A stretch of DNA of 16,760 bases from Promethearchaeati archaeon (GCA_013166775.1 JABLTJ010000056.1:1-16760), one strand, 5' to 3'. Numbered from the stretch's first letter, positions 2,148-16,323 are shown. Translations and numbers: made by a program. Notes: generated from the sequence alone by a model not told the origin.

Positions 2148-4106
2148 TTGTGCATAGTTATATTCCTGAGTTCTTTTCTGATTTTTAGTATACCAAATAC
2201 CTATAGTTCTTCTGAAGATACAAATAATTTTTTAGACAATTATAACATTTCAGATAATCCAAAAATAAAGCAAATACCATTTTCTCTAGTTGATTTAGAG
2301 GATTTTTGTAATGGTTATATTCTCGACCAACTAGACGAAAACGATATTGGTGGAATGAGTATTTCCGTAGTTAAGGATGGAGAGCTGTTTTTCACTAGAG
2401 GATATGGTTACTATGATAGATGGCTTCTAGAACCTGTTGATCCAAACAGGACTCTTTTTAGAATTGGTTCAATTTCTAAAACATTTAACGCAATTGCGGT
2501 TCTTCAATTAGTTGAGGATGGTATTTTGGATTTGGATACTGATGTTAATGAGTATTTGACAGAATTCAAAATTCCTGATACTTATCCTGAAGCAATCACT
2601 TTAAGACACTTACTCACACACTCAGCTGGATTTGAAGAATCAAGATTTGCAGTAGTTTTAGATTCTCCAACTTATCTGGAACCATTAGAAGAAATTCTAA
2701 AAAACGGAATACCTGAAAGAGTAAGACCTGTGGGTGAATTAACAGCTTATTCAAATTATGGAACAGCTTTAGCTGGATATATTGTTCAATTGAAATCTGG
2801 AAAGGATTTTGCTCAATATATCAAGGATGAAATCTTCACTCCTCTAGGTATGAATAAAAGTTCATTCGAACAACCATTACCATCTGGTTTAGATGATGCT
2901 ATGTCTAGAGGTTTTGATGAAAATAAAATACCTGGTTTCTTTGAATATATCACAGTAATTCCAGCAGGAGCAGGAAGTTCAACTGCAGTTGATATGGCAA
3001 AATTAATGCTAGCTTTAATGAATAATGGTACTTACAATGGAGCAAGAATCCTTGAAAATGAAACAATGCAATTGATGCAAGAAGATCATTTTATTGCCCA
3101 TCCCAACCTTCCTAATGTGAATCTTGGCTTATATGAATTGGACATAAACAATAAACATATTATATCTCATGGTGGCGATACAATCTTCTTTCACAGTTAT
3201 ATGTTCATGTTTCCTGAAGAGAATTTGGGAGTATTTGTTTCATACAACAGTGTTAACGGAGTAATAGCTTCTAGAGCATTCTTCAGTACTTTTGTAAATA
3301 GATATTTTCCATTTCCAGGACGGACTGTTACACCAATGATAGGTTATAATAAAGGACTGAGAAATTTTGCAGGATTCTATGTTCCTGCTAGAAGATATTA
3401 TTCAGATACAGAACATATTAGGGAGTATGATTTTCTAGAAACAGGGTATGAAATAAGCATTTCAAGAGGAAAATTAAAACTTTCTATGCTAAACAGTATA
3501 GACTTTATTCAGATTGAACCTAATTATTTTGTTGAATCAACAGGTCAATACGATTTTAGATTAGCATTCATAAATGATAGTAAGGGAGATATCACGCACC
3601 ATTATATGAACTTCTCCCCAACAGTAGTAGCATCAGAAAAAGTCCATCCACTTTACGAAAAATCAGAGGGATTATCTGTAACCATAGCTGTTATCGGAGC
3701 ATATATCTTCATGTCTTTAATCTTCTGGGCTATTACTGGTTTCACAAATCGTAAAAGGAAGGAAGAAAAAGCTCCTACAATCCTGAGAGTAGCGAAGTGG
3801 ACGGTAGCTGGAGTGTTTATCCTTACTACTCTAATTTACTCTTTATTCCTAACATATTCTCTTTCAACTATACTTCTAGATACAGAACAACTTATTTACT
3901 CTCAAGGGTGGTTAGTAGCTTCTATAATAGATATTATTCTAACTGTAGGTCTAATAGTGTTTACTGGACTTTCATGGTTAGGACTAGGTAAAGTAGAAAA
4001 CAAACCATATTGGTCTACTTGGGGAAAAATAAACTACTCAATTATGGCTACCTTATGTATTGTGTTTACTTGGAGTTTCGGATATTGGAATCTTTTGGGA
4101 ATCTAA
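2148..4106 (+). CDS. Membrane-anchored serine hydrolase, beta-lactamase class C / peptidase S12 family
   Basis: FRIGSISK (SxxK), LLTHSAGF, YSN and HGG motifs. N-terminal hydrophobic signal and ~4 C-terminal TM helices. The true start may lie upstream (see findings). Confidence 0.9.
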   Translation: MCIVIFLSSFLIFSIPNTYSSSEDTNNFLDNYNISDNPKIKQIPFSLVDLEDFCNGYILDQLDENDIGGMSISVVKDGELFFTRGYGYYDRWLLEPVDPNRTLFRIGSISKTFNAIAVLQLVEDGILDLDTDVNEYLTEFKIPDTYPEAITLRHLLTHSAGFEESRFAVVLDSPTYLEPLEEILKNGIPERVRPVGELTAYSNYGTALAGYIVQLKSGKDFAQYIKDEIFTPLGMNKSSFEQPLPSGLDDAMSRGFDENKIPGFFEYITVIPAGAGSSTAVDMAKLMLALMNNGTYNGARILENETMQLMQEDHFIAHPNLPNVNLGLYELDINNKHIISHGGDTIFFHSYMFMFPEENLGVFVSYNSVNGVIASRAFFSTFVNRYFPFPGRTVTPMIGYNKGLRNFAGFYVPARRYYSDTEHIREYDFLETGYEISISRGKLKLSMLNSIDFIQIEPNYFVESTGQYDFRLAFINDSKGDITHHYMNFSPTVVASEKVHPLYEKSEGLSVTIAVIGAYIFMSLIFWAITGFTNRKRKEEKAPTILRVAKWTVAGVFILTTLIYSLFLTYSLSTILLDTEQLIYSQGWLVASIIDIILTVGLIVFTGLSWLGLGKVENKPYWSTWGKINYSIMATLCIVFTWSFGYWNLLGI

Positions 4107-9824: not shown

Positions 9825-9906
9825 TATATTGAAAAAGAAAAAAATATCATTATATTTCTAATTTATATTGAAAAAGAAAAAAATATCATTATATTTCTAA
9901 TTTATA
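9825..9906. repeat. Exact 39-bp tandem duplication
   Basis: tatattgaaaaagaaaaaaatatcattatatttctaatt at 9825-9863 and 9864-9902, plus 4 nt. It includes the TrxR stop codon and the T-rich terminator. Confidence 0.95.
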
Positions 9907-11084
9907 ATTTTCAGATAATCACGAATCTTCAAAGCCACCCTAGCTCCCTCACCAACTGCTGAAGCAATTTGTCTTGTCGATTTACTCCTACAATCACCAA
10001 TTGCATATATTCCTTGGATATTTGTCATCATATTTTCATCTGTTTTAATAAATCCATTTTCATCTAAAACCGCAAGATGTTCTACGATTTTAGCATTTGG
10101 TTCAAGCCCTGCAAATATGAACACTCCATCCGGTTTGAGAATAACTTCTCTTTGATTAATTCTATCAAAGCAAACTACTCCCTTTAGTTGTTTTTTCTCC
10201 CCTGTTTGAAATTCCTTAATTTCATAACTTGTCAAAGTTTTTATTTTAGGATTTGCAGATATTTCTTTCTGAATAACCTTAGAAGCTGTTAATTCATCCA
10301 TAATCTCTACAATTATTATTTCTGAAGCAAAACGAGACAAGATAAGGGATTCTTGTAGAGCAGAATTTCCTCCTCCTACAACTAAAACTTTCTTATTTTT
10401 ATAGTATGAACCATCACATATTGCACAAAAATGAATTTTGTACCCAGTTAAATACTCTTCACCTTCAACACTAAGTTTTTTGTATTCGGTTCCAGTAGCT
10501 AAAACTATAATCTTTGCTTTTAAAACATCCCCATGAGAAGTTCTAACAATAAATCCTTTTGCTTCCTTTTCAATTTTAGTAACTAATGTAGCTTTGAGCA
10601 ATTCTACTCCAAACTTCTCAGCTTGTTGAGTAAAAGCTAATGCTAGATTCTCACCAGTTACACCTTTAGGAAAACCAGGATAGTTCTCTATTCTTTCAAT
10701 GTAAAATAATCTTCCTCCTAAAGCACCCTTTTCAATAACAATAGTACTCATACCTTCTCTAGCTGAATAAATGGCACAAGTTAATCCGGAAGGTCCACTT
10801 CCAACAATTAGAACATCATAATTGGTTTTGGAAGGTTTTGATACTAAATCTAATTTCTCAGCAAGCTCAACATTTGTTGGTTCTATAAGATATGTTCCAT
10901 CAGAAAATTCTATAGTTGGAACTTTTCTTTTACCATCATTAATTTTTTCAACTATTTGTGCAGCTTTCTCATCCTCTGCGATATTGATCAATTCATAATC
11001 TATTCGATGTTCAGCGAGAAATAATTTGGATTTCTTACAATCAGAACACCAAGGAGTACCATAAAATCTGATTATTTTCATCAT
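9897..11084 (-). CDS. trxB: Glutaredoxin-like domain fused to thioredoxin reductase (FAD-dependent disulfide reductase)
   Basis: N-terminal WCSDC and VPTI (Grx/NrdH-like). GSGPSG FAD motif, ENYPGFP, CAICDG active site, GGGNSA, and GIYAIGD. Confidence 0.9.
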   Translation of the reverse strand: MMKIIRFYGTPWCSDCKKSKLFLAEHRIDYELINIAEDEKAAQIVEKINDGKRKVPTIEFSDGTYLIEPTNVELAEKLDLVSKPSKTNYDVLIVGSGPSGLTCAIYSAREGMSTIVIEKGALGGRLFYIERIENYPGFPKGVTGENLALAFTQQAEKFGVELLKATLVTKIEKEAKGFIVRTSHGDVLKAKIIVLATGTEYKKLSVEGEEYLTGYKIHFCAICDGSYYKNKKVLVVGGGNSALQESLILSRFASEIIIVEIMDELTASKVIQKEISANPKIKTLTSYEIKEFQTGEKKQLKGVVCFDRINQREVILKPDGVFIFAGLEPNAKIVEHLAVLDENGFIKTDENMMTNIQGIYAIGDCRSKSTRQIASAVGEGARVALKIRDYLKIIN

Positions 11085-11410
11085 TCTTGCGAAGAAGAGA
11101 ATATCAATTCAATTTGAATATTTGCCAATGACTGTAAAAAATACACATAATAAACTCTAACATGAATATTTTTCTCGTATCTGAAAAGAATTATGCAAAG
11201 AAATTCTGAAATAAACAAGATATTCTAGTTTTCTCTTTGGAGACTTTTAGAAAACCAAGATCCTAAATATATCTATATAGCTAAGATACTTGTTCTCTAA
11301 CACTTACTTTACCTACTTCTAATCATAGGTAAGTAAGTACTCTAGAGAGTACTCTACCAATGCAGAATTGTCCTTTGTTCTGCAATGTGCGTTTCGCACT
11401 GCTTGCTTTT

Positions 11411-12814
11411 TTATCTGTAAGCTACTGTTTTTCCACTACTACCGTTACTGATGTGTTTGTAAATAGCTGCTCCGTTACCGTTGGTGTGTCCATTGGCATA
11501 GTTACTGTTTCCATTACCAATGTGTTTGTGTAGATTGACTTCACCAAAGTTACCATTTTTGTGTTTTTCTTCTATAACAGTAACAACACTATTGAATAAC
11601 CAATCTTCGTTAGTTTTCCATTCAGAAGCGTCCCAATCGAAGTTATCGATGTAGAACGGCCACCACATCCCATGCTTCCCAAAGAAGTCCAGGGAGTAGA
11701 TTTTGTGATTCTTGAAAGTACTCCAAATCAAGTAAGATAACTTGGAATCGTAGTATGGAGGAAGTGATAATCTAAGGAAAATACCCCGATCTAAGAGCTC
11801 AAAGCCTGTTTGAAAAGGTGGATTTTCTTCATTCAAAAAGTTGTAGAACTGGTTCTTTTCCTTTTCAGAAGCATCTTCAATAATAAAAGCACGTGTAACA
11901 TGCTCCTCAAAAAGCTTCCTACTAAAATTCCATCTAGGATTAGTTATCAGATAATTCTTGACTACGTTGTAGTATTTTCGACCAAAATCGACTTTGGTGT
12001 TGTGGCCATTGCGGGTATCAAAGAACTCCCCAAGATTGTAGTAGAAGTTCTTCTCAGTGTCTGAAAGACGGATTTTCTTACCTAAGTGTTGGTAATATTC
12101 TCTGTAGTATTCAATAAGATCTGTTTGCTTGGTACGGATACCTATTTGTTTTCCATTTTCAGAGTGACTAGTAAGATCACGTAAGAGTAGGAAATGGAAA
12201 GGCTCGATAGGTTTTTCTCCTTCATCAGTAACAACAACAATTTTGCCGTTTTTAACAGTAACAGCGCTTCTAACTCCGTTAACTAAATCAGAACTCTTTT
12301 GTAAACGTTTTTCCCAGAAGGAAATGATATCAAAAGGTTCAGGTTCAGATGTGTAATTGGGTAAGGGAGCTGGTCGTGAGAAACGATGACCTGTAGCTTT
12401 GAAAATTGTATAGTCGTCACAAAATTCTTCTTCAACGAGATATTCTAAGAACTTATTAAAAGCTCCATTGACGTTTGTAGGTAGATCGAATTGGGCATAA
12501 ATGCCGAATCTTTCGCCGTAAAAACGATTGTATCCGCGTATATAATTGTGTTCAGATATGGCGCTTTGTAAGAGCGTAAACTGGTGGAGTTGGGAAATAT
12601 TGAAAACAACACCATATCTGGCAAGACCTATACGTTCGGGAACGAAAGAGGCAATAGGGTTGCGAAGAATACCTTTAGTTTTTAGTGATTCTACTCGTCG
12701 AATCATGGTTTGTGGAGAAATGTTGAGTTTCTTACCCAACGAAGAATATGGCTCCAGTGGATAATTCTGCAAGACATTCAAGATTTTTCTGTCAAGTATG
12801 TTGAGTTGATCCAT
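11411..12814 (-). CDS. Large Lrp/AsnC-type wHTH transcription regulator (probably tandem HTH-RAM units) with low-complexity tail
   Basis: LDRKILNVLQ...YSSLGKKLNISPQTMIRRVESLKTKGIL is an AsnC-type HTH, followed by RAM-like beta/alpha segments and a second degenerate unit from FHFLLLRDL. ATG 12814 has SD-like gaggt upstream. Confidence 0.8.
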   Translation of the reverse strand: MDQLNILDRKILNVLQNYPLEPYSSLGKKLNISPQTMIRRVESLKTKGILRNPIASFVPERIGLARYGVVFNISQLHQFTLLQSAISEHNYIRGYNRFYGERFGIYAQFDLPTNVNGAFNKFLEYLVEEEFCDDYTIFKATGHRFSRPAPLPNYTSEPEPFDIISFWEKRLQKSSDLVNGVRSAVTVKNGKIVVVTDEGEKPIEPFHFLLLRDLTSHSENGKQIGIRTKQTDLIEYYREYYQHLGKKIRLSDTEKNFYYNLGEFFDTRNGHNTKVDFGRKYYNVVKNYLITNPRWNFSRKLFEEHVTRAFIIEDASEKEKNQFYNFLNEENPPFQTGFELLDRGIFLRLSLPPYYDSKLSYLIWSTFKNHKIYSLDFFGKHGMWWPFYIDNFDWDASEWKTNEDWLFNSVVTVIEEKHKNGNFGEVNLHKHIGNGNSNYANGHTNGNGAAIYKHISNGSSGKTVAYR

Positions 12815-12855
12815 TTTTTTAGACCTCAAATTTTTTCATTTGATTTTTTTCTATT

Positions 12856-12965
12856 TTTGTACGAGAGAAATTAGGAAATCCATAAGAAATAGAGATGAAT
12901 GTACAAAACCTCTGAACGAAACTCTTGTACAAGAGCCTGAAGAGAGAGTTTTGTACAAGATCTCT
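12856..12965. promoter_or_regulatory. Array of TGTACA operator-like boxes upstream of the Lrp-type gene
   Basis: GTAC cores at 12901, 12927 and 12953 (26-bp period), plus a weaker one at 12859. Perfect palindrome ctcttgtacaagag at 12922-12935. Confidence 0.7.
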
Positions 12966-13071
12966 AGTTGAAACACCCAAATGAGACTTAAGCCCCAAAG
13001 GAGTTCACGTTTATAGACCTCTAAATTACTTCGTGTGGTTTGACCCCTTGCTATTAAGCTTATACTAAGCT

Positions 13072-13188
13072 GGTTGATCAGATAACCCCAGTATAAAACC
13101 TATGGAGCGTCGTTGACCCCTATGACGCCCCCAAGGTTTCTTTCACTACGCCGAGGAAAGGGGTGGGGTTTTCTGGCGATTTTTTTTT
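13072..13188 (+). ncRNA. Candidate ~110-nt structured RNA (three-way junction)
   Basis: GC-rich island. Pairings are 13078-13090/13164-13176, 13096-13113/13122-13139 and 13140-13144/13156-13160. T9 runs follow on the + strand. Confidence 0.45.
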
Positions 13189-13204
13189 GTTATCGTGATT
13201 TTTT

Positions 13205-13519
13205 TTATAATGTTCCGTCAGCAAATGAACCACCGATTGGTTCATCTGGATATCCTCCATCAGGACCTCCGCCACTTGCGAAGTTTCCACCGATTGGTTC
13301 ATCTGGATATCCTCCATCAGGACCTCCGCCACTTGCGAAGTTTCCACCGATTGGTTCATCTGGATATCCTCCATCAGGACCTCCGCCACTTGCGAAGTTT
13401 CCACCAATAGGTTCATCAGGATACCCACCATCAGGACCTGCGACTACAATTGCGCTTGCAACTACTGCAAGTAACGATACTAAACAAACGACTCCTAATA
13501 ATTTTGTTTTAGCCTTCAT
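13205..13519 (-). CDS. Small secreted tandem-repeat peptide precursor (104 aa: signal peptide plus 4 GPDGGYPDEPIGG-containing units)
   Basis: Signal peptide MKAKTKLLGVVCLVSLLAVVASAIVVA, then (GPDGGYPDEPIGGNFASGG)x3 and GPDGGYPDEPIGGSFADGTL. SD-like ggtgg 9 nt upstream of ATG 13519. The TATA box at 13582-13575 argues against ATG 13570. Confidence 0.8.
   Translation of the reverse strand: MKAKTKLLGVVCLVSLLAVVASAIVVAGPDGGYPDEPIGGNFASGGGPDGGYPDEPIGGNFASGGGPDGGYPDEPIGGNFASGGGPDGGYPDEPIGGSFADGTL
13230..13438. repeat. 57-bp coding tandem repeat, ~3.7 copies
   Basis: Three identical units (13230-13286, 13287-13343, 13344-13400) and a partial fourth (13401-13438) with 5 substitutions, all synonymous. 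Confidence 0.97.
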
Positions 13520-13554
13520 TTCTATTATCCACCAGCTTTTAATAATAAAGCTCA

Positions 13555-13601
13555 TGTTACAATTTTCCATAGTATATATAAAGCTTTGGAAAATCGTAAC
13601 A
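13555..13601 (-). promoter_or_regulatory. TATA box of the peptide gene enclosed by a 15-bp inverted repeat
   Basis: tgttacaattttcca (13555-13569) and tggaaaatcgtaaca (13587-13601) match 14/15. The 17-bp spacer contains minus-strand TTTATATA. Confidence 0.7.
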
Positions 13602-13933
13602 GCTACCCTCTGAAGTACCCTTAGACTGCCTTACTTGGTTTTCTAATTTAATTTGTGTCGGCAGAGAATTTTACTTAGATATTTACTTAAGTGTAAGGCA
13701 AATCAATTAACAATGTGCTTTCATCGTGTAACATTGCGGTATATATGGCCATAATATTCACTTGTCTTTTTCTTCATTTAAATATAAAAACACCTAATAA
13801 AATCTAAAATTCTTTTGATTAATTTCTTATTACTTTCAGTTAAGTTATTCACTAAATTTCGACAAAATAAGCTAGGTAGTACTCTCATTTGTGTAATCGA
13901 TTGCACATTCGTTTTCATTCTTTATTTTGCGAT

Positions 13934-16138
13934 CTAATGATATTTTTTCGCAACTAATATGACACTTAACAATTCTTCAGTTTTCATTGTAGGTGAATTT
14001 ATTATCCATTCAGGTAAATCTGGAGGATTTGAATCAACCATTTCTTGCCACTGTTCATCTGTCAGTCTATCATTCATTGGGTGTTTGAATTCATAATAAG
14101 AGAAAGTTCCACCCTTTGTTAGTCTCAGATTTCCGTCGTGATCTTGTACAACCACATATATGATAAACGGGTCACCCACTGCAACTTCTAGTATTTGTTC
14201 TGTATTTACATCTGTATATACATCTGCAATTAGAGCTAATCTATTAGCTTCTCCAGTTGATACATCTCCTATCTCGGAATCTAGTATCTCTCCAAAATTC
14301 TCCCCAACGTGACCAATGAAACGTACATCACTCTCATTCAAAGGTATGTTTTCTAATTCTTTTATGGAGATTTCTGTCAATCTATCGAATATACTCTTAC
14401 ATTCTAGTAACTTATCGTTAAAAGTTTCATTAAGTAATCCTCTTGCTGTCAATCCGTCATACATGAGTTTCACTAAACTGCTTAATCTAGAATATACTTC
14501 AGGAATTGGTTCTACATACCCATCCTTTATATGAGGACCTGAATAATAAAACGAATATGCTTGTTTTGCATAAAGAAGTGTGTCATGCCTTAATTCTACC
14601 CATGAACCCAATGTTGTCATGAGAGATTTATCTTCCCAAGCATCATTCAACATGAAACCAGGATATCCCTCAGAAGCATGATTTAGAAGTGGAAAGAGAT
14701 TGTATAACCACATCCAATAGAGGTTTTGAGTCCAATCATAATCAGTCAGGTTTCCAAATTCAGTTCTTAGTTCATGTATTTTTGAGTTATAATCAGTATA
14801 TGTGGTATTTTCTTCTTGTAAATGATAAGCTGCTCTAGAACTTCCAAAAACCGAAAAAACATCTAATGCTTTTGGGAAATTCCTTAAAGTTACTTTATTA
14901 TGTACTAATTGCTGAAAGATGTACGAATCTGGGATAAACCTTTGTCCAAACAATCTGAAGCTTTTAGTTACATCTTCAAATTCAAATTTGTCTAAAATAA
15001 ACATTGAATTGATTCTAGGATCTCTATAGTTCTTAGCATCTTCAATCATTGCTAAGATTAATGTCTCATCACTCAGCTCATCCCCTTGAACAAAACTATG
15101 ATTTTTCCATATCTGAAAATACTCTTTTGGAGTTAAATCATCGCTTTTCCCAACATAAAAGGTAGTAGGCTCGTACATCTTATCCCAAAAATCCCAACAA
15201 GTTTCATCTCCTATCGTGGAATTAAACGAAGAAACAAGTAACATTGCCATTCTTGTTTGTTCTATTCCCATTTCTATTCCCATTTCTATTCCCCCCATTG
15301 GATTCTGCAGATGAAATCCCATTCTTCCTGCATACATCATTGCTTTGAAATATTTCTTTAGAATCTCACTTTTAGTGTAATGTCCTCTGGGTTTGTATTG
15401 ACTATAATCTTCTATATATCCGAATATTGACGATTCAGCTAAAGTGCTGCTGTTTATTTTATCAAGTTCCGAATTCGCTAATTCCGAAACTTCGATAGGA
15501 ATTACATATGAATCATTTAATAGGTACAACATTACTGAGAGATAAGCGATATTTTTCCTTAGAGCATCATAAACAATAGGTTCTGTTACACTTGAATTTA
15601 TATTAAATTGTGAATCTCTTAAAGCACTTAATATTGTGATAAAATCGTTATAAAAATAATCAGCTTCTATTATTCTTAAACTATAATCAAAAAGTGAATG
15701 ATATGTATGTAAACATAAATCACTAGTTACAAAAAACGGATCTTCATTATAGGTATTATAGATTTCAAAGATGTCTGTAAATCCCTCATCTACAATTACA
15801 AATCCGTATTGAGAAATTATTTTTTTCAAATCATTAGAAAGTTCAGTTCCCTGTAAATCTACATTACTCAAATCAGAATTGATTTTTATAGGAATTATAG
15901 ATGGTTGATAATCCAATTGTTCAGGAATATACTCACCAAAACTTGTTTGAACTGATTCATCAATTGAGTAAGCTGCTGCTGTACCCTGGAGTATTCCCAT
16001 CCCTTCATAATTAATTACCCATTCATTATCTAAGGATTCGTTCGGTTTTAAAGGGAGAAATACAACCAAAGTAGAAATTATTATACATATTGAAATCGCT
16101 GAAAAACTATAGATAATCAGTTTTTTTGAGATTTTCAT
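13934..16138 (-). CDS. DUF3160-domain protein, N-terminally membrane anchored
   Basis: DYSQYKPRGHYT, FGQRFIPDS, SWVELRHDTLLYAKQ, GYVEP, SYYEF and RLTDEQW motifs match my recollection of DUF3160. Confidence 0.88.
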   Translation of the reverse strand: MKISKKLIIYSFSAISICIIISTLVVFLPLKPNESLDNEWVINYEGMGILQGTAAAYSIDESVQTSFGEYIPEQLDYQPSIIPIKINSDLSNVDLQGTELSNDLKKIISQYGFVIVDEGFTDIFEIYNTYNEDPFFVTSDLCLHTYHSLFDYSLRIIEADYFYNDFITILSALRDSQFNINSSVTEPIVYDALRKNIAYLSVMLYLLNDSYVIPIEVSELANSELDKINSSTLAESSIFGYIEDYSQYKPRGHYTKSEILKKYFKAMMYAGRMGFHLQNPMGGIEMGIEMGIEQTRMAMLLVSSFNSTIGDETCWDFWDKMYEPTTFYVGKSDDLTPKEYFQIWKNHSFVQGDELSDETLILAMIEDAKNYRDPRINSMFILDKFEFEDVTKSFRLFGQRFIPDSYIFQQLVHNKVTLRNFPKALDVFSVFGSSRAAYHLQEENTTYTDYNSKIHELRTEFGNLTDYDWTQNLYWMWLYNLFPLLNHASEGYPGFMLNDAWEDKSLMTTLGSWVELRHDTLLYAKQAYSFYYSGPHIKDGYVEPIPEVYSRLSSLVKLMYDGLTARGLLNETFNDKLLECKSIFDRLTEISIKELENIPLNESDVRFIGHVGENFGEILDSEIGDVSTGEANRLALIADVYTDVNTEQILEVAVGDPFIIYVVVQDHDGNLRLTKGGTFSYYEFKHPMNDRLTDEQWQEMVDSNPPDLPEWIINSPTMKTEELLSVILVAKKYH
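15260..15293. repeat. 12-bp in-frame tandem repeat (~2.8 copies) in the DUF3160 gene
   Basis: ttctattcccat x2 plus ttctattccc, encoding GIEMGIEMGIE. Confidence 0.9.
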
Positions 16139-16323
16139 TTAAACCACTAAACTTGCTTTTGAAATTACAGACCACAGTAATTCACAGCTTACAATGATTC
16201 AGACACTAATAAACTCTCTTCAAGTAGGGAATTTCATCTTGTTTTCCTTCTTGAATTTGGGTGAAATATGAATACTGCATAATCAGAATCTTCTTCTTTG
16301 TTTCCTTTTTACATGAACATGAA

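Follow-up and report, generated by a model that had tools for sequence, protein, structure and literature searches.

The stretch of DNA analysed here, referred to as the window, comprises 16,760 nucleotides (nt) of a Promethearchaeati archaeon (GCA_013166775.1 JABLTJ010000056.1:1-16760), and all positions are counted on this whole stretch. Positions 11411–13601 are a conserved three-part unit of one genus of Heimdallarchaeaceae, formed by a gene for a repeat peptide, a GC-rich element and a gene for a regulator with a double Lrp-like predicted fold. The unit is best explained as a version, elaborated within this genus, of a two-gene cassette found across Asgard archaea, in which a secreted FDPP-tail protein is paired with a fused double Lrp-like winged helix-turn-helix (wHTH) protein. 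The function that we favour, with a probability of about one half, is that of a dedicated regulator–target operon with a layer of RNA control acting in cis. A full-text search of the literature, judged by its result listings, retrieved no description of such a cassette, and control by a peptide, an RNA and a double-Lrp protein together is, as far as this search shows, undescribed. To our knowledge, almost nothing is known about gene regulation or communication in Asgard archaea, the closest prokaryotic relatives of eukaryotes.

Layout and conservation of the unit

The minus strand of the region 11085–13933 holds two genes, with long spacers between and beside them. The spacers around both genes measure 326, 390 and 414 nt, whereas the other ten gaps in the window range from -8 to 185 nt, with a single one of 348 nt. 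The original prediction, made from the sequence of the window, had pointed to long spacers in an otherwise tightly packed stretch and to a peptide gene between them, and both are borne out; the peptide gene encodes a basic and hydrophobic N-terminus followed by a tandem repeat.

Regulator matches at the level of orthologues were found in 17 of 24 sister genomes of the genus. At each of the 15 orthologous loci that include upstream sequence, a gene encoding a signal peptide and tandem repeats lies on the same strand, 346–394 nt before the regulator, and the proposed synteny of the regulator with a small signal-peptide open reading frame (ORF) is thereby strongly confirmed. The repeat gene is complete at 10 of these loci and cut by a contig end inside the repeats at the remaining five; the contigs of loci L015, L017, L018, L019 and L020 stop within the peptide repeat array. 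Because repeats break short-read assemblies, the copy numbers in metagenome-assembled genomes may be unreliable.

The GC-rich element follows the same distribution. A covariance model of the element (R1) never matches more than once in a genome; the sister genomes with a match are precisely those 17 of 24 in which the regulator orthologue occurs, the window's own genome is matched as well, and 36 genomes outside the genus have no match. By contrast with the unit itself, the flanking genes vary: the DUF3160 and TrxR-like genes of the window recur at none of 19 loci, and the Pfam content of the flanks differs.

The double Lrp-like regulator, its partner peptide and the candidate DNA sites

The regulator comprises 467 residues, three times the normal length of an Lrp protein. 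Its ATG start at 12814 (MDQLN) is common to most aligned orthologues, and two of them begin with IDQLN. Pfam detects the N-terminal AsnC-type wHTH region alone, at residues 4–51, with 33.9 bits for HTH_24 (cut-off 21.9) and 33.3 bits for HTH_AsnC-type (cut-off 27); a NirDL-like HTH match is also present, and the Pfam RAM family has no match in the sequence at E ≤ 0.01. An AlphaFold2 (AF2) model was built from 18 homologues, with a predicted local distance difference test (pLDDT) value of 81.3 and a predicted template modelling (pTM) score of 0.82. The predicted chain consists of a wHTH and a RAM-like domain, a helical middle part, a second RAM-like domain and a disordered tail rich in Asn and Gly (residues 433–467). 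The first RAM-like domain adopts a β-α-β-β-α-β arrangement at residues 64–147. The RAM domain expected of the Lrp/AsnC family is therefore recognised in the predicted fold and not in the sequence.

A Foldseek search of the PDB with this model gave NirDL (4ch7) as the top whole-chain match, with an E value of 1.5e-9 over 419 columns, 10–11% identity, a TM-score of 0.40 and a root mean square deviation of 12 Å. Ordinary Lrp/AsnC chains came next, matching the first ~150 residues with a probability of 1.0. The NCBIfam equivalogs scored far under their cut-offs, with 27 bits versus 140 for AhbA (NF040708), 26.8 versus 227 for AsnC and 20.3 versus 250 for LrpA, and the same holds for LysM. By its HTH and its modelled fold, the regulator is thus of Lrp type, with a predicted architecture of a fused double module rather than that of a classical Lrp of 150 residues. 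The Lrp-type gene of the original prediction stands as far as the AsnC-type HTH and the Lrp-like fold are concerned; the expected chain of ~150 residues with one RAM domain gives way to a fused double chain.

Database relatives of the regulator are few, and are labelled as Lrp/AsnC or wHTH regulators of Candidatus Heimdallarchaeaceae. The C-terminal half is found in only 56 representative clusters among 1.84 billion proteins (E ≤ 0.001); most of these comprise 350–415 residues, and about one-third are shorter and probably fragments. Paralogs share 24–45% identity with the regulator in alignments that span both halves. One subclade (L007:1-1095, L014:1-1254) carries a second double-Lrp-like gene, recognised by its HTH matches, directly downstream of the regulator.

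The peptide gene encodes a protein of 104 residues with a signal-peptide-like N-terminus (MKAKTKLLGVVCLVSLLAVVASA) that is basic and hydrophobic and ends in ASA, features that suggest export. The array of repeats at 13230–13439 consists of 3.7 copies of a 57-nt (19-residue) unit, GPDGGYPDEPIGGNFASGG, with 96% matches. Repetition of a core peptide is a feature shared with multi-core precursors of ribosomally synthesised and post-translationally modified peptides (RiPPs); Pfam searches of the window, and of the sequences that flank 10 orthologous loci, recognised no modifying or processing enzymes. Across the orthologous loci, the number of copies varies from 2 to 7 around a P(I/L/V)(G/Q) core, with DEPIG in most. 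The units are near-identical within a species and differ between species, as in GPVEDEPIG.. and GPDDGQTDTPLQG...

The origin of the repeat is indicated by the paralogs of the regulator. Two of the three in this genome are directly preceded by secreted proteins of ~150 residues, which end in FDPPEGEPDYPPGGG.. and FDPPSGGSEGDPYIG..., and the third by a membrane-anchored secreted protein of 294 residues. Orthologous loci in other genera have the ~150-residue type of partner, with tails such as FDPPGGSGDEPIGGGVSP. A further 18 paralog loci were sampled from the regulator search matches and cover five families of the class; an FDPP-type partner of ~150 residues lies directly upstream at 14 of them and a type of ~300 residues at 2, while one locus has neither and one is truncated by a contig end. 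The FDPP motif is invariant in all 16 aligned partner proteins of ~150 residues, whose tails, such as FDPPGGSGDEPIGG, resemble the peptide repeat unit; the unit of the window corresponds to the portion of the tail after FDPP. The AF2 model of an FDPP partner is an all-β sandwich (pLDDT 86.5); in the full-length model, the end of the tail turns back and joins the sandwich as one of its strands. No PDB structure matched this model in Foldseek (E ≤ 0.001), no Pfam or NCBIfam family was found, and the ESM Atlas returned only unnamed clusters, under 0.9. The unit descends from the FDPP cassette, and its repeat is probably the amplified C-terminal tail of an FDPP β-sandwich protein that has lost its body, as judged from the sequence comparison. 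At L027, L079 and L084, double-Lrp paralogs are preceded by a secreted protein of ~300 residues with a stalk rich in proline and threonine and a C-terminal membrane anchor.

Both promoter regions of the unit contain palindromic sites. Upstream of the peptide gene, two arms of 18 nt (13555–13572 and 13584–13601) are 89% complementary and lie 11 nt apart. The spacer between them encloses the TATA box TATATATAAA (13573–13582), in agreement with the operator-bracketed promoter that had been proposed for the gene. The half-site TGGAAAATNGTAACA occurs in its exact form only twice in the 3.85-Mb genome, both copies being those of the palindrome. Both arms are conserved at 11 of 11 loci; at the 10 other loci, the palindrome is followed by a TATA-like TCTTAAATA, in a stretch where ~33 nt are missing from the window. 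The triple-box array that had been described before the regulator ORF is likewise present, as three exact TGTACA boxes spaced by 26 nt, the middle one of which is inside a 14-bp palindrome, CTCTTGTACAAGAG. TGTACA occurs seven times in the whole 16.7-kb window. Two boxes of the TGTACA type, exact or one-off, are found at 10 of 15 other loci, mostly 47–50 nt apart and near -123 and -76, and those of L021 lie at -105 and -61. The palindrome and the TGTACA boxes are candidate binding sites of the regulator.

The conserved element and transcription across the spacer

The element has a GC content of 44.6%, compared with 33.4% for the whole window. Alignment of 16 spacers on the gene strand reveals invariant blocks, ATCGCCAGAAA.CCCCACCCC.TTTCCTC, a loop (A/G)GGTC, CAAGGGGTCAAACC and TTAGAGGTCTA, with variable stretches between them. 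A hairpin can be drawn around the loop motif in each of the 16 sequences, with a stem of 6–8 contiguous base pairs in 15 of them and of 4 in L012. The stem occurs in 13 distinct sequences, and its main types, GGG(C/T)CT/AG(G/A)(C/T)CC, GGGGGG/CCCCCC and (GG)GCGTC/GACGC(C/T)C, are clade-specific yet paired. The region 12980–13204 folds with a z score of -2.03 on the minus strand and -1.57 on the plus strand. The element is more than a product of chance because it is conserved in relatives, not on account of this one sequence; taken together, the evidence that it forms a structured RNA is good but not statistically secured. For the GC-rich structured element of the original prediction, the rise in GC content is confirmed, and the structure is weak in the window sequence taken alone.

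Rfam 15 has no match at E ≤ 1 in 11300–13760, and the sole match in the window is mir-247 (E 0.3) at 16212–16263. Scans for tRNA and tmRNA found none, and by BLAST the element is single-copy in the window's own genome. Exact or one-off copies of the 14-mer CAAGGGGTCAAACC in G009:C69, G018:C151 and G025/G029 were dismissed as chance occurrences that lack the other blocks and an R1 match. We also considered whether the element, or the stretch before the regulator gene, might encode a small conserved ORF, and rejected this, as the frames differ and are broken by indels. A scan for bacterial-type promoters and terminators found terminator-like sites at chance level (2 versus 1.9). On the minus strand at 13104–13120, GGUUUU(A/U) comes after the inner hairpin, and the L007 subclade has five U here; the sequence could be a weak archaeal point of termination or attenuation between the genes.

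The element includes one segment with predicted complementarity to the ribosome-binding region of the peptide gene. The 5' untranslated region (UTR) of this gene carries AGCTGGTGGA, invariant at 11 of 11 aligned loci. At 10 of the 11 loci, predictions place positions -45 to +6 of the gene, which include this sequence, in a duplex with one and the same homologous part of the element, with -24 to -31 kcal/mol, and at 7 of the 11 the observed duplex energy was reached by none of 40 composition-matched shuffles. The window duplex has -25.5 kcal/mol, a value that 0 of 40 such shuffles reached. The window's 5' UTR is diverged and pairs best with its own diverged element, the cognate combination being the best in its row.

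Four RNA-library runs were mapped, as contigs only. Run X19 yields one contig of 1084 nt (depth 104.5, 94% alike) that covers 12117–13200 and takes in the regulator ORF over its 5' third, together with the box array and the element in full. This run totals only 44 million letters, so that such a depth would not be expected from even genome coverage. Run X8, from the same study, covers 11467–12658 at depths of 49–182. Runs X21 and X18, from two other studies, contain contigs of relatives that join the invariant block 13153–13183 to 317 and 155 nt, respectively, toward the peptide gene; the peptide ORF, at its 3' end, and the beginning of the element thus lie on one contig. The spacer is transcribed, and a single sense transcript probably runs through the peptide ORF, the element and the regulator; overlapping transcripts are an alternative.

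Table 1. Features of the unit, with positions on the whole stretch.
Feature	Position	Strand	Basis or details
Regulator gene, 467 aa	11411..12814	-	ORF, Pfam HTH and AF2 fold
TGTACA box array before the regulator ORF	12857..12964	.	Exact boxes at 12900, 12926 and 12952; degenerate TGTACG at 12858
GC-rich conserved element, ~180 nt	13007..13190	Provisionally gene strand (-)	Alignment and covariance model
Complementary segment of the element	13047..13087	-	Duplex prediction; alternative local hairpin AGCUUA/UAAGCU
Element hairpin	13091..13142	-	Inner stem GGGGCGTC/GACGCTCC, loop with (A/G)GGTC, outer stem AAACC/GGTTT
Peptide gene, 104 aa	13205..13519	-	ORF and repeat search
Peptide 5' UTR	13523..13563	-	Shine-Dalgarno-like GGTGGA 9 nt before ATG
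Peptide-promoter palindrome	13555..13601	.	TGTTACnnTTTTCCA - spacer - TGGAAAATnGTAACA; inverted-repeat search and alignment
Further conserved blocks upstream of the peptide gene	13634..13702	.	TTGCCTTACAC..CTAAGTAAA and CCGACA on the gene strand; 11-locus alignment, blastn

Models for the cassette and its relation to known systems

We propose the following model for the cassette. The secreted protein of the ancestral pair would have lost its β-sandwich body, its acidic tail (..P.DEPIGG..) would have been amplified into tandem repeats, and a spacer of 350–390 nt with a folded RNA element would have been inserted between the two genes. The peptide promoter would drive a single transcript, on which the peptide ORF is followed by the element and the regulator ORF. 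As the dedicated transcription regulator of the unit, the double-Lrp protein would recognise two sites, the palindrome of the peptide promoter, which is unique in the genome, and the TGTACA boxes that precede the regulator ORF; the latter would amount to autoregulation. The RNA element, read on the gene strand, may act in cis, with its complementary segment either folded into the local hairpin or paired with the Shine-Dalgarno region of the peptide gene, and such switching would tune the output of peptide relative to that of the regulator.

Several results weigh against this operon model. RNAalifold, run on MAFFT alignments for both strands, gave 16–18 pairs with only 1–2 compensatory ones. 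In a column-wise count after realignment to a hairpin model (R2), 69.2% were paired, versus 62.9% in shuffles and 72.8% after a slide of +1 column; the count is no better than that of the slide, because the registers of the stem differ by clade. The window element alone folds with a z score of -1.28, and 21 of 200 shuffles are as good. Summed over the 16 sequences, the plus strand is the more stable (-824 versus -723 kcal/mol), and T-runs follow the element on that strand; for the central part of the element, the two strands give -363 and -359. The predicted duplex of the window does not stand out against natural sequence, as 76 of 393 natural 51-nt windows of this DNA pair with the element equally well, and antisense duplexes are slightly more stable (-321 versus -294). 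For the ribosome-binding region of the regulator itself, pairing with the element was not significant, and the pairing back to the 5' UTR was not found in L022, L023 and L025, which belong to the related genera g2 and g4. TGTACA boxes are missing from a subclade of five loci (L007, L009, L010, L014 and L017). As for the RNA libraries, the mapped contigs carry neither strand nor end information, and no contig of runs X8 and X19 covers the peptide ORF or the neighbouring genes; such a gap in cover does not count as evidence, and the repeats may break the assembly.

The energies of the two strands bear on a distinctly unlikely alternative, namely that the element is an independent small RNA of the plus strand, antisense to both genes, that ends at the T-runs at 13174–13199 and serves as a decoy or pairs with the sense spacer. 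Placed on the plus strand, the element would resemble the peptide ribosome-binding region rather than complementing it. The plus orientation folds more stably in 14 of the 16 sequences, all 16 have the T-runs, the helix UAGACC/GGUUUG forms only in this orientation, and the stem mismatch of L012 becomes a G-U pair. An antisense RNA of 150 nt, however, does not explain the unbroken RNA contig that extends from the regulator ORF through the element, and where G-U pairs occur in the hairpins, as in the window, L014 and L017, they are consistent with the gene strand. A TATA box conserved at a fixed distance is absent, a hairpin insertion of 14–19 nt lies where the spacing of promoter and start would need to be constant, and nothing above chance came from the terminator scan. 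We give next to no credence to the complementarity of the 5' UTR and the element being an inverted repeat at the level of DNA that flanks the peptide ORF as an invertible off-switch. Imperfect inverted repeats of ~20–30 nt do bracket the ORF at 10 of 11 loci, and the energies do not separate the strands; but the repeats hold bulges and G-U-type positions, no recombinase gene was found in the window or in the examined flanks, and no strand-changing joint was seen at the repeats in the four RNA-contig runs.

Other accounts concern the peptide and the protein beside it. The exported repeat protein might be cut into units of ~19 residues or shorter DEPIG-type peptides that are re-imported, bind the RAM-like domains and change transcription of the cassette. 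This scheme of peptide sensing, put forward in the original prediction, would be a functional analogue of Rap-Phr/RRNPP signalling made of unrelated parts, and we hold it to be doubtful. It would suit the tight and ancient pairing of a secreted partner with a cytoplasmic regulator across many paralogs per genome, and the presence of two predicted RAM-like domains of a ligand-binding type. Retention and amplification of the C-terminal tail alone, with loss of the folded body, is what would be expected if the tail were the active part; RRNPP signals likewise derive from the C-terminus of exported precursors. The near-identity of repeat copies within a species, combined with units that differ between species, also speaks for sensing, and the at least 17 family-5 peptide-binding transporter proteins of the genome show only that uptake is possible. 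Yet a regulator that simply lies beside its target gives equal synteny, and the tail, which in the full-length partner model ends as a strand of the sandwich, may be structural. Pfam searches of the window and the flanks detected no processing protease, dedicated importer or tetratricopeptide repeat (TPR) receptor at the locus. The double-Lrp protein might, very improbably, not be a transcription factor at all and instead act as an enzyme or escort on the FDPP/DEPIG tail of the pre-protein before export, comparable to the Lrp-like siroheme decarboxylases. The best whole-chain structural match is indeed the enzyme NirDL, the NirDL-like HTH is matched in Pfam, and the partner, which bears a short invariant motif, is paired with it strictly one-to-one. 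Identity to NirDL is a mere 10–11%, however, and the AhbA equivalog stays at 27 bits with a cut-off of 140; the AsnC-type HTH is well conserved, palindromic DNA sites are conserved at both promoters, and a partner with a Sec-type signal would leave the cytoplasm.

The closest known relative of the unit is the FDPP-tail/double-Lrp cassette. The two have in common the family of the regulator, the order and strand of the genes, the signal peptide of the partner and a related tail motif (P..G..DEP.G). Here, by contrast, the β-sandwich body of ~120 residues is absent and the tail is repeated 2–7 times, and the spacer of 346–394 nt with its conserved putative RNA element replaces one of 24–100 nt. 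In L022 and L023 (genus g2), the spacer between the FDPP gene and the regulator measures 336–346 nt and contains three copies of a motif of ~33 nt, CACGATTAGACAGAATCGTCTAATGAACACCCAC. In this motif a C-rich tail comes after a hairpin or palindrome, and TCACGAT and a CACCC-type tract are common to it and the window element; it may represent the RNA/operator region in an older or a parallel form.

With the Lrp/AsnC regulators (feast/famine regulatory proteins, such as PH0061, E. coli AsnC and Lrp, and ST1022), the regulator shares the AsnC-type wHTH and the α/β RAM-like domain. The subunits of those dimers or octamers are single modules of ~150 residues, in contrast to the 467 residues and two Lrp-like halves found here. 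Arrays of palindromic boxes before regulator genes are typical of Ss-LrpB. The siroheme decarboxylases NirDL and AhbA-AhbB (4ch7, 4czd) have a comparable double Lrp-like architecture, either fused or paired. They differ in sequence, as the identity and AhbA score already indicate, and in context: the window has no haem-pathway genes by Pfam, and paralogs in the regulator family are numerous in a genome, each with the gene for a secreted protein as its neighbour.

The RRNPP systems of Bacillota (Rap-Phr, PlcR-PapR, NprR-NprX, AimR-AimP) combine a gene for an exported peptide with an adjacent gene for a cytoplasmic regulator that has a TPR receptor. The unit resembles them in the small pro-peptide gene, exported as judged by sequence, that adjoins the regulator at 15 of 15 orthologous loci, in the many paralogous pairs and in the conservation of the C-terminal part. 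It differs in its archaeal host, in the multi-copy repeat precursor and in a predicted receptor fold that is Lrp-like, with no TPR match in Pfam. Long-range pairing that masks a Shine-Dalgarno sequence defines a general class of RNA leaders acting in cis; here, too, a conserved structured segment is predicted to be complementary to GGUGGA and the adjoining sequence, and a local hairpin would compete with this pairing. The segment, however, lies ~400–600 nt away and downstream of the ORF, and belongs to no Rfam family.

The cassette is a small conserved unit with parts that can be tested: a genome-unique operator, a 19-residue peptide that can be synthesised, a regulator that folds with confidence in prediction and an RNA of ~180 nt. 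If the peptide is a ligand, the unit would represent archaeal peptide signalling that is undescribed as far as the literature search shows, along with a new class of ligands of Lrp-type proteins. If it is not, the unit would still be of use for the study of archaeal regulators that are dedicated to one target and combined with an unusual layer of RNA, and it illustrates how the tail of a protein can become a repeat peptide. A bolder picture, which we regard as unlikely, is peptide signalling in the Heimdall group assembled from parts that are not related to those of bacteria, in which a DEPIG-type signal, present in several copies on an exported precursor and amplified from the tail of an older secreted protein, would act on a fused double Lrp-like receptor-regulator, an RNA able to mask the ribosome-binding site in cis would set the gain, and the paralogous FDPP/double-Lrp pairs would serve as parallel channels.

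The surroundings of the unit were also inspected. A search for defence systems with PADLOC gave a weak HTH match only. The gene directly upstream of the peptide promoter (13934–16138) encodes a DUF3160 protein of 734 residues (Pfam, 600 bits) with a hydrophobic N-terminus, and is not part of the cassette because it is seen at none of the 19 related loci. On the 3' side of the regulator stop, positions 11328–11410 contain hairpin-forming repeats (GTGCG..CGCAC, TGCAGAA..TTCTGCA and two copies of AGTACTCT), and the terminator scan flagged 11387–11399 in this spacer, on the plus strand only. Genes for hydrolases with a β-lactamase fold lie at 2148–4106, 9 kb from the cassette, and are found directly upstream in the flanks of L009 and L010; a gene for a family-5 peptide-binding protein also flanks L010. 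The gene at 9897..11084 encodes a pyridine-nucleotide-disulphide oxidoreductase fused to a glutaredoxin. It is preceded by the 348-nt spacer, inside which a perfect 39-nt tandem repeat (2.1 copies, 100% matches) is located at 9825–9906.

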